NCBI GenBank assembly: GCA_013285995.1
Contig: JABDGN010000001.1
Coordinates: forward strand, 1,051 to 65,050
Direction: 5' to 3'
Origin: Gammaproteobacteria bacterium
GTDB lineage: Bacteria; Pseudomonadota; Gammaproteobacteria; JABDGN01
Length of the DNA: 64,000 nt
This document shows, in pieces, positions 61,888-62,415 of this stretch. Within the stretch, counting starts at the first letter, position 1. Each line of letters starts with the position of its first letter. The position numbers and the translations under genes were made by a program. The notes under the pieces were generated by a model, which saw nothing but the letters and a program-made list of their open reading frames with translations, was not told where the DNA came from and did no database searches.

Positions 61888-62142
61888 TCAAAGCATATAT
61901 AATTTTTCATGCAGCTCATCGGCCACTTGTTTGGCACGCTCGACGATTTCTGCAACCGCTTCGAGATAGCCTATCAATGTCGTCTCGCTCGCATGACTGA
62001 AATCACTTAAAGTCCCTAAATCTAATAACGCACAAGTATTAGTTAAGTCACTCTTTAAAGCCTCACTTTTATCCCGCAAAAAATACAGCTGCTCAGCCGG
62101 CAACATATACAGATTTTTTACATCTATCATAATTCTCTCCAT
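61888..62142 (-). CDS. small helical protein, paralogue of 6021-6266 (DUF3077-reminiscent)
   Basis: See the alignment under 6021-6266. It starts 9 nt after the stop of the CsrA-like gene. Confidence 0.5.
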   Translation of the reverse strand: MERIMIDVKNLYMLPAEQLYFLRDKSEALKSDLTNTCALLDLGTLSDFSHASETTLIGYLEAVAEIVERAKQVADELHEKLYML

Positions 62143-62151
62143 AAATTTACT

Positions 62152-62415
62152 TTAAACCCGACACACCACCATATTCTTAGGTTCGACAATTAACAAGGTT
62201 GCATTTACACAGGCTTCATCAATTTGAATCACTCGCAATTTAATTTTATCCGCCAAAGTAATTAACTCACCCAGCCCACCCTGCCGCACTTCTTGCCTAC
62301 CACAAGCTAGCGTCGTTTTAAAAGTCACTTTTTCTTCGTTGATATGAACAAGACAAGCTAATAACTTGCGATTGAAACGCAGGGATTCGCCAATTTTTTG
62401 GGTTTCGATTAACAT
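62152..62415 (-). CDS. divergent CsrA-like protein with partly duplicated core
   Basis: MLIETQKIGESLRF vs E. coli CsrA MLILTRRVGETLMI. Both RKLLACLVHINEEKVTFKTTLACGRQEVRQ and DKIKLRVIQIDEACVNATLLIVEPKNMVVCR follow the [29 protein letters not shown] strand pattern. AAAGGAG RBS before ATG 62415; the ORF-track start at 62520 is an extension. Confidence 0.4.
   Translation of the reverse strand: MLIETQKIGESLRFNRKLLACLVHINEEKVTFKTTLACGRQEVRQGGLGELITLADKIKLRVIQIDEACVNATLLIVEPKNMVVCRV

Follow-up and report, generated by a model that had tools for sequence, protein, structure and literature searches.

A strongly diverged CsrA variant with a duplicated beta-core, very likely a single-chain pseudo-dimer, in an uncultured gammaproteobacterium

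CsrA is among the best-studied bacterial post-transcriptional regulators, and its symmetric two-site dimer is central to models of its action, such as the bridging of GGA motifs and titration by multi-site sponge RNAs. In the canonical protein, two chains of 61 amino acids (aa) interdigitate, such that beta1 and beta5 of each subunit flank the beta2-beta4 core of its partner, and each of the two identical RNA sites consists of beta1 of one chain and beta5 of the other. Can a single chain take the place of this dimer? The question is raised by a gene on the minus strand of a 64,000-nucleotide (nt) stretch of DNA, hereafter the window, that covers C1:1051-65050 (contig C1) of the 1.63-Mb, 90-contig, 60%-complete genome (42% GC) of an uncultured gammaproteobacterium. 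An initial annotation had described the 87-aa product as a CsrA-like protein with a duplicated beta-core, in which one chain might replace the dimer, followed by a gene for a small helical protein; both minus-strand open reading frames (ORFs) exist, and the sequences quoted for them are exact. We find that the 87-aa protein is a new, strongly diverged variant of CsrA and very likely a CsrA-derived single-chain pseudo-dimer. The reading as a whole, in which this derivative acts as an insulated monovalent regulator or as a competitor of CsrA, has in our estimate a probability of about 0.6. The gene and the two halves of its product are laid out as follows:

62152..62415, minus strand: coding sequence of the 87-aa single-chain duplicated CsrA-like protein (P0001), stop codon included (ORF and translation, starts of the paralogues, AlphaFold2 model, pN/pS)
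62278..62415, minus strand: N-terminal half, residues 1-46, with beta1 (2-7), beta2 (11-14), beta3 (18-25), beta4 (29-35) and a degenerate beta5 or linker strand (41-48) (hhalign, DSSP)
62155..62277, minus strand: C-terminal half, residues 47-87, with beta2' (51-54), beta3' (58-65), beta4' (71-78) and beta5' (84-86) (Pfam, hhalign, alignment A2, DSSP)
62424..62429, minus strand: Shine-Dalgarno sequence AAGGAG, 8 nt 5' of the ATG of the 87-aa gene (sequence)

To place this gene, we searched its own genome with tblastn and found three clear paralogues, on contigs C13, C2 and C23 (59%, 37% and 36% identity, respectively); C7 carries a weak fifth copy. All four clear copies begin MLI or MLV at the same ATG, which backs the start given above; a longer reading of 122 aa is possible via an upstream ATG, however all paralogues begin at MLI/MLV. 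The 9-mer AAGGAGATA at the Shine-Dalgarno sequence is common to the window and C13 copies and is the sole conserved stretch of their upstream regions. Among the four paralogues, nonsynonymous differences per site (pN, 0.23-0.45) are rarer than synonymous ones (pS, 0.67-0.82, with synonymous sites saturated), and these copies are real genes under purifying selection.

The relationship to CsrA was examined with profiles. The Pfam CsrA profile (PF02599) matches the 87-aa protein with E=0.0027 and 18.1 bits, aligning residues 49-86 to profile positions 9-44. A hidden Markov model (HMM) built from the four paralogues of this genome and searched against 1.84 billion representative proteins returned 14 proteins with E<1e-3. 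Ten of these are about 88-143 aa long, begin with MLVLxRR, the canonical CsrA beta1, and end with LGIDAPK..xREE, with about 40 additional residues between. Nine of the ten are of the type beta1-core-linker-core-beta5 and align over their full length with the window protein in a 13-sequence alignment (A2), tying the window family to an unmistakable CsrA motif at E values of 1e-5 to 1e-3, while the tenth (P0010) consists of two entire CsrA units in tandem. For this extended family, profile-profile comparison with hhalign matched the N-terminal half to CsrA residues 1-39 (probability 98.4%, E=5e-15), the C-terminal half to residues 8-58 (98.9%, E=1e-17) and the two halves to each other (93.5%, E=2e-7). 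When the profile was restricted to this genome's four paralogues, the probabilities against CsrA were 90.6% for the N-terminal and 64% for the C-terminal half; because these signals are weaker, the claim of a duplication in the window subfamily leans partly on its less diverged relatives. CsrA homology is detectable over the beta-strand core, and whole-protein family cut-offs are not reached. Single-sequence searches with the 87-aa protein found no match among PDB sequences, k-mer homologue searches with the 87-aa protein and its 84-aa neighbour each matched only the query itself, and a related-locus profile search of the genome contigs with alignment A1 gave no match. The four-paralogue profile also matched P0006, a 1930-aa metagenomic repeat protein, in 11 stretches (E=2e-15); we judged this match compositional and spurious and left it out, as the repeats (…TVDYAVTGTATGGGTDYTL…) look Calx-beta/cadherin-type and have an unrelated repeat composition.

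The predicted structure repeats the pattern seen in the profiles. An AlphaFold2 (AF2) model computed on the 13-sequence alignment (predicted local distance difference test, pLDDT, 94; predicted template modelling score, pTM, 0.81) has nine strands and is all-beta, with no helix. The strands of the N-terminal half stand in the CsrA beta1-beta5 register, and a second set repeats beta2-beta5 at an offset of about 40 residues. The model leaves no room for a second beta1: strand 41-48 passes straight into beta2' via GG-L-G, and the chain ends one residue past R86, the equivalent of CsrA R44. The chain thereby has a single beta1, at its N-terminus, then two beta2-beta4 cores connected by a variable linker, and a single CsrA-type beta5 at its C-terminus, and the AF2 model does not have the five strands plus short C-terminal helix per subunit that characterize the CsrA family. 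A Foldseek search of the viral structure database BFVD returned nine models that match the whole fold (TM score 0.67-0.85, root-mean-square deviation 1.5-2.9 Å), the best of which is annotated "Carbon storage regulator [uncultured Caudovirales phage]". From the homology and the strand register we infer that the two sets of strands form a CsrA-like sandwich. Profile comparison, AF2 model and full-length relatives thus bear out the duplicated beta-core of the initial annotation, and its suggestion that a single chain replaces the interdigitated dimer is the best reading of a monomer model that runs from beta1 to beta5 and then from beta2' to beta5'.

What would such a chain do with RNA? Alanine scanning of Escherichia coli CsrA identified L2, L4, R6, R7, V40, V42, R44 and I47 as RNA-contact residues. 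At the putative composite site of beta1 and beta5', the window protein keeps L2 and, as R86, R44; the V40 and V42 positions stay hydrophobic (M82 and V84), and the PK motif before beta5' is retained. Across the 13-sequence alignment L2 is invariant and R86 is kept in at least 90%, and the distant relatives have an essentially canonical set of residues at the retained site (L2, L4, R6, R7, V40, V42, R44). At the second putative site, beta1' is deleted and beta5 is non-canonical. Since the chain supplies two cores but only one beta1 and one CsrA-like beta5, we expect at most one RNA site.

We propose that the 87-aa protein is a strongly diverged single-chain CsrA derivative with the order beta1-[beta2-beta3-beta4]-(degenerate beta5/linker)-[beta2'-beta3'-beta4']-beta5', in which the second beta1 would have been deleted and the first beta5 turned into a hairpin that leads into beta2'. 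The resulting intramolecular pseudo-dimer would present at most one composite RNA face, made of the N-terminal beta1 and the C-terminal beta5'. Subunit exchange with the six canonical CsrA paralogues of this genome should then be impossible, as should the bridging of two GGA sites, and because it would do neither, the protein could regulate expression post-transcriptionally as a monovalent, insulated factor, or compete with canonical CsrA. It would likely act on transcripts from whichever accessory region, low-GC islet or mobile-element cassette, the gene resides in. That the window protein is still a monovalent RNA binder is likely but unproven. A changed RNA specificity or weakened binding is likely in this genome's subfamily, because the remaining site is only partly canonical.

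The genomic setting of the copies links them to canonical csrA and to accessory DNA. The genome carries six canonical csrA genes (on C30, C2, C3, C27, C23 and C24), and this complement of six canonical and four to five duplicated genes is unusually large for such a small, 60%-complete 1.63-Mb metagenome-assembled genome (MAG). On C2, the duplicated gene lies directly 3' of a canonical csrA and is followed by an XRE regulator gene, a gene for a 103-aa member of the helical family described below and a GGA-rich intergenic stretch. On C23, its neighbours are a 113-aa ORF on one side and a canonical csrA on the other. It is oriented divergently to an S24/LexA-type repressor gene, whose closest likenesses are on Legionella and Piscirickettsia plasmids, and candidate transfer genes come after it. 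These two copies adjoin csrA in lvr-like or mobile-element cassettes, and the window copy does not. The C13 copy is found in a low-GC islet similar to that of the window copy, with a paralogous 439-aa gene, a 2OG-Fe(II) oxygenase gene and an MFS transporter gene that starts 4 nt past its stop. Beyond this genome, a broader profile found a full-length match in 3 of 400 genomes sampled across the class (about 1%). A tblastn search of the PLSDB plasmids with the duplicated CsrA and the 113-aa neighbour on C23 gave no match, and a search of a phage collection returned only canonical phage CsrAs with partial coverage. The MutS protein of the source organism shares 68% identity with its counterpart in one MAG, and no other match exceeds 59%.

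We observed the same association with canonical csrA among the distant relatives. On a phage-like contig (L008), a canonical csrA is followed, with a 7-nt overlap, by a duplicated CsrA gene and then by an 87-aa ORF, an HTH_17 gene and an integrase gene. In Pseudomonas fulva/putida (L110/L111, 4759-5432), a 65-aa csrA precedes a 143-aa full tandem CsrA within a type VI secretion system (T6SS) cluster, between PAAR/PoNi genes and hcp-vgrG; RefSeq names the tandem protein (WP_197844972.1) carbon storage regulator. Both Pseudomonas proteins carry GIQAP, an unusual motif; this suggests an independent event of duplication and fusion at that locus, and the 143-aa tandem probably arose independently of the window-type architecture. 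Other distant duplicated members lie in prophage-like regions. These contexts allow a wider and more speculative account: natural one-sited single-chain CsrAs might have arisen repeatedly beside canonical csrA on mobile or accessory DNA, here represented by an ICE-like cassette, a phage-like element and a Pseudomonas T6SS cluster, as protein competitors of CsrA, occupying single GGA sites on mRNAs or sponge RNAs without bridging or subunit mixing, and so tuning or opposing CsrA control; the window subfamily would be a branch that has evolved further and may have gained a new ligand at its degenerate face or open beta4 edge. We regard this account, taken whole, as unlikely, if worth stating.

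The initial annotation took the gene next to the window copy to encode a possible partner, and the product of this gene belongs to a family with a second member at the other end of the window:

61888..62142, minus strand: coding sequence of the 84-aa helical-hairpin protein (P0002), 9 nt past the stop of the CsrA-like gene (ORF, AF2, nine-member family)
6021..6266, minus strand: hairpin-family paralogue, 47% identity, divergent from an XRE regulator gene and with no CsrA-like gene near (tblastn and HMM iteration)

The public gene call starts instead at an internal ATG (62130) with the Shine-Dalgarno sequence GGAGAG before it, for a product of 80 aa that begins 21 nt past the CsrA-like stop. 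Because there is no convincing terminator between them, the two genes are probably co-transcribed. AF2 predicts the 84-aa protein to be a two-helix hairpin (helices 15-45 and 53-82, pLDDT 84.5) with a disordered N-terminus, so that a small helical protein tightly linked downstream is indeed present. The structures in the PDB that match the hairpin model are generic hairpins, and the protein has no Pfam or NCBIfam match, including FliW (PF02623), and no relatives outside the genome by k-mer search. By HMM iteration we found nine family members in the genome, sharing the motif A[LI]xELGSIADF; two lie in the window (61888-62142 and 6021-6266) and one more on the same contig. A family of three in the window, as the initial annotation had it, is not supported: its third member, at 16610-17032, does not come up at E<1.

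For seven of the nine hairpin genes, no CsrA-like gene is close by; their usual neighbours are XRE or toxin-antitoxin genes. No hairpin-family gene is near the duplicated CsrA on C13 or C23, and in the C2 cassette a member lies about 400 bp downstream. A hairpin-family gene lies within 1 kb at two of the five duplicated-CsrA loci, against a chance expectation of about 0.05 events by a rough estimate. This co-location is above chance and is equally explained by shared residence in accessory DNA. Two phage-like loci have a parallel gene order, in which a conserved 87-aa protein (L008 5298-5561 and L106 4026-4289) follows the duplicated CsrA and precedes an integrase gene. The hairpin family shows no homology to these 87-aa proteins (hhalign score 10.9, within the null distribution). 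Homology to the L. pneumophila protein P0017 and to the small ORFs on C23 was likewise considered and rejected on comparison. A functional link between the 87-aa protein and the hairpin protein is unproven.

Several observations weigh against the single-chain regulator that we propose. The CsrA profile match over residues 49-86 falls below the curated Pfam cut-off (18.1 bits versus 27), and the NCBIfam csrA model TIGR00202 reaches 18.8 bits (E about 1e-3) versus a cut-off of 70.1. The internal-repeat signal is weak with this genome's paralogues alone (hhalign probability 21.6%), and a Foldseek search of the model against the PDB returned nothing below E=0.1 and did not list CsrA. At the RNA face of the window protein, L4 is replaced by Glu, R6 by Gln and R7 by Lys, and I47 is absent; L4 is Glu in three of the four paralogues, the R44 equivalent is not clearly retained in the C2 and C23 copies, and with contacts altered in this way RNA binding may have been lost in the window subfamily. 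Finally, the subfamily was not found in six genomes of the same family, and three syntenic relative loci on metagenomic contigs (L112-L114) carry the genes for the 405-aa and 442-aa proteins found upstream in the window islet and for PolF, in that order, and no duplicated CsrA; because of these absences we regard the duplicated-CsrA gene as a lineage-specific addition. If the missed cut-offs, the weak repeat signal and the silence of the PDB search were all that we had, the resemblance to CsrA and the internal repeat might be put down to chance features of an unrelated small beta-rich protein. We find this barely credible in view of the HMM link (E 1e-5 to 1e-3) to proteins with an unmistakable CsrA motif, the hhalign values of E=5e-15 and 1e-17 with a strand register identical to that of CsrA, the whole-fold match to a viral "carbon storage regulator" model and the canonical csrA adjoining two of the paralogous loci. 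The PDB search itself we take to be uninformative, because a CsrA chain is the non-compact half of a swapped dimer and BFVD gave whole-fold matches.

The altered RNA face leads to a more serious alternative, in which the fold is derived from CsrA but RNA binding has been lost and the subfamily was recruited for protein-protein interaction, either with the hairpin protein or with a strand that fills the open beta4 edge. Such a change of role would account for the Glu at L4 in three of four paralogues, for the variable R6, R7 and R44 equivalents and for the loss of I47 together with the C-terminal helix; the residues invariant in the subfamily (F14, N15, T34, L36, E42, G46, T53) also lie outside the canonical RNA site, and a small helical gene is tightly linked in the window, with a family member about 400 bp downstream in the C2 cassette. 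It fits less well with the retention of L2, R86 and the hydrophobic beta5' positions, with the net positive charge calculated from the sequence of the 87-aa protein and with the existence of relatives whose beta1/beta5' pair is fully canonical, and an interaction with the hairpin protein in particular sits poorly with the C13 and C23 copies, which have no hairpin gene nearby, and with the seven of nine hairpin genes found away from CsrA-like genes. On balance we consider a loss of RNA binding rather unlikely, though it is the alternative to keep most in view. A regulator-antagonist pair of the CsrA-FliW kind, as suggested by the initial annotation, would have the helical protein sequester or allosterically inhibit the CsrA-like protein. 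The gap of 9-21 nt with probable co-transcription, the two of five loci with a hairpin gene within 1 kb (about 0.05 events expected by chance) and the unrelated phage-like loci that also place a non-homologous protein of about 87 aa after a duplicated CsrA are all compatible with it. FliW, however, acts on the C-terminal region of Bacillus subtilis CsrA, and the CsrA-like protein has no such region, neither helix nor tail; the hairpin protein matches neither FliW nor any other family, its fold is generic and unlike that of FliW, most members of its family stand alone beside XRE or toxin-antitoxin genes with only two of the nine copies near a duplicated CsrA, and it has no homology to the 87-aa proteins of the phage-like loci (hhalign score 10.9). 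Both families may also be mere cargo of the same accessory regions. Such a pair is improbable, and the idea has found no footing in our comparisons. We thus continue to favor a single-chain CsrA derivative with at most one RNA site.

The surroundings of the gene contain further features, two of which lie upstream of it within the window:

62829..64000, minus strand: 3' part of a POT/PTR2-family transporter gene, directly upstream in the same low-GC islet (Pfam PTR2 E=1e-41, GC profile)
62670..62698, minus strand: candidate sigma-70-like promoter TTCACA-17-AATAAT, 10/12 matches (consensus scan only; weak)

The window copy stands on the border of an islet of low GC (0.33-0.36 versus 0.46-0.48 in the flanks) that measures about 6.5 kb, takes in about 61950-64000 of the window and continues to C1:69500. 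Further upstream, just beyond the window, the islet contains genes for a 442-aa and a 405-aa protein of no known function (C1:65291-67939), and a 526-aa ORF lies downstream of the window gene pair. The 442-aa protein has more than 350 homologues in uncultured Gammaproteobacteria. Together with the 405-aa protein it forms a conserved gene pair in many of these organisms, usually followed by PolF (PF19705); both proteins are without Pfam or NCBIfam assignment. The promoter candidate is weak because the number of such sites is not above the shuffled expectation. In the 285-nt leader of the 87-aa gene, which carries AAGGAGAUA, GGA motifs are not enriched (4 versus about 2.7 expected), and an Rfam scan of 61000-64000 gave no match. 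The leader also contains a 51-aa ORF with a strong ribosome-binding site (GGATAGGAG) at 62438-62593 (minus strand), stopping 20 nt short of the CsrA-like gene; nothing comparable lies upstream of the C13 paralogue, and this ORF may be a leader peptide or no gene at all. Outside the window, the intergenic stretch after the hairpin-family gene on C2 (C2:15061-15215) has four GGA motifs within about 65 nt versus about 0.6 expected and terminates in a GC-rich stem followed by T7, a terminator-like hairpin; it could be a small CsrA-binding RNA or only a terminator. Elsewhere in the genome, the protein encoded at C16:13765-14574 appears to have an F-box-like N-terminus (LPVELMVCILSFL), and that encoded at C2:12317-13279 is an XRE helix-turn-helix (HTH) domain fused to ankyrin-like repeats; such domains would hint at a host-associated lifestyle of the Legionella or Coxiella type.

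To our knowledge, a one-sited CsrA has so far existed only as an engineered heterodimer. A natural single-chain CsrA would allow a direct test of what the second site is for, and would suggest how genomes with many CsrA paralogues avoid the mixing of subunits. The repeated pairing of canonical and duplicated csrA on mobile DNA suggests a functional relationship between the two. The value of the present case lies in a probable one-sited design of natural origin, in its expansion to four or five copies within a small genome that also has six canonical csrA genes, and in the recurrent pairing on mobile DNA. Proteins of the duplicated architecture are already present in public databases under the generic name "carbon storage regulator"; full-text literature searches and two recent surveys of CsrA diversity (PMC7366521, PMC13443453) yielded no description of a natural internally duplicated CsrA.

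How does the 87-aa protein compare with known systems? With canonical CsrA/RsmA/RsmE it shares the N-terminal MLI... beta1, the beta1-beta5 register, the PK motif, the R44 equivalent and profile homology of both halves, but it is one 87-aa chain instead of two 61-aa chains, with a doubled beta2-beta4 core, one beta1, one CsrA-like beta5, no C-terminal helix, Glu at L4 and at most one RNA site instead of two. The database "carbon storage regulator" duplicates (among them the phage and metagenomic proteins P0007-P0016, WP_197844972.1 and BFVD A0A6J5RUQ1) resemble it in architecture, predicted fold (TM up to 0.85) and adjacency to csrA. They differ in their canonical MLVLxRR beta1, their GIDAPK..REE motif with a helix and their annotation as CsrA, whereas the window subfamily is only 19-28% identical to them, stops directly past beta5' and occurs in a single genome; the Pseudomonas protein WP_197844972.1 differs further as a complete tandem of two CsrA units. 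RsmN/RsmF of Pseudomonas aeruginosa is generally known as a CsrA variant in which elements are rearranged and the dimeric sandwich is kept, and it is named in PMC8545117 and PMC13443453; unlike the window protein, it remains homodimeric and has two RNA sites, and in it the position of the helix is changed and the core is not duplicated. The C-terminal domain of the YqeH GTPase (PDB 3ec1, 3h2y) is a single-chain two-repeat beta-sandwich with an architecture close to that of the CsrA dimer (PMC2954204), but its repeats are compact, side by side and segment-swapped relative to CsrA, whereas the window protein keeps the CsrA strand order. YqeH 3h2y came up at Foldseek rank 48 (E=0.93, TM 0.27, not significant) and has no sequence similarity to the 87-aa protein. 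The CsrA-FliW pair differs from the window pair in both partners, as the neighbour here is a two-helix hairpin and the CsrA-like protein lacks a C-terminal helix or extension. In the Legionella lvrRABC module, a repressor gene (lvrR), lvrA, lvrB and the csrA paralogue lvrC lie beside type IV secretion system (T4SS) genes (PMC3864950). In an lvr module on an L. pneumophila plasmid, which we located via its lvrR-like repressor, a 324-aa Vir protein, a 157-aa protein and a 67-aa helical protein precede csrA; we considered the 87-aa protein as a counterpart of LvrB and rejected this, as the pre-csrA proteins of that module are unrelated to it and PLSDB gave no match. The link to csrA genes of Legionella mobile elements, drawn in the initial annotation, fails for the window copy, which is flanked by a POT transporter gene and a 526-aa ORF, with no repressor, csrA or T4SS genes. 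It holds for the paralogues on C2 and C23, which stand beside canonical csrA in lvr-like or mobile cassettes, and on C23 the likeness to lvrRABC extends to an S24 repressor gene of the lvrR kind on one side of the duplicated gene and a canonical csrA on the other, with candidate transfer genes beyond.

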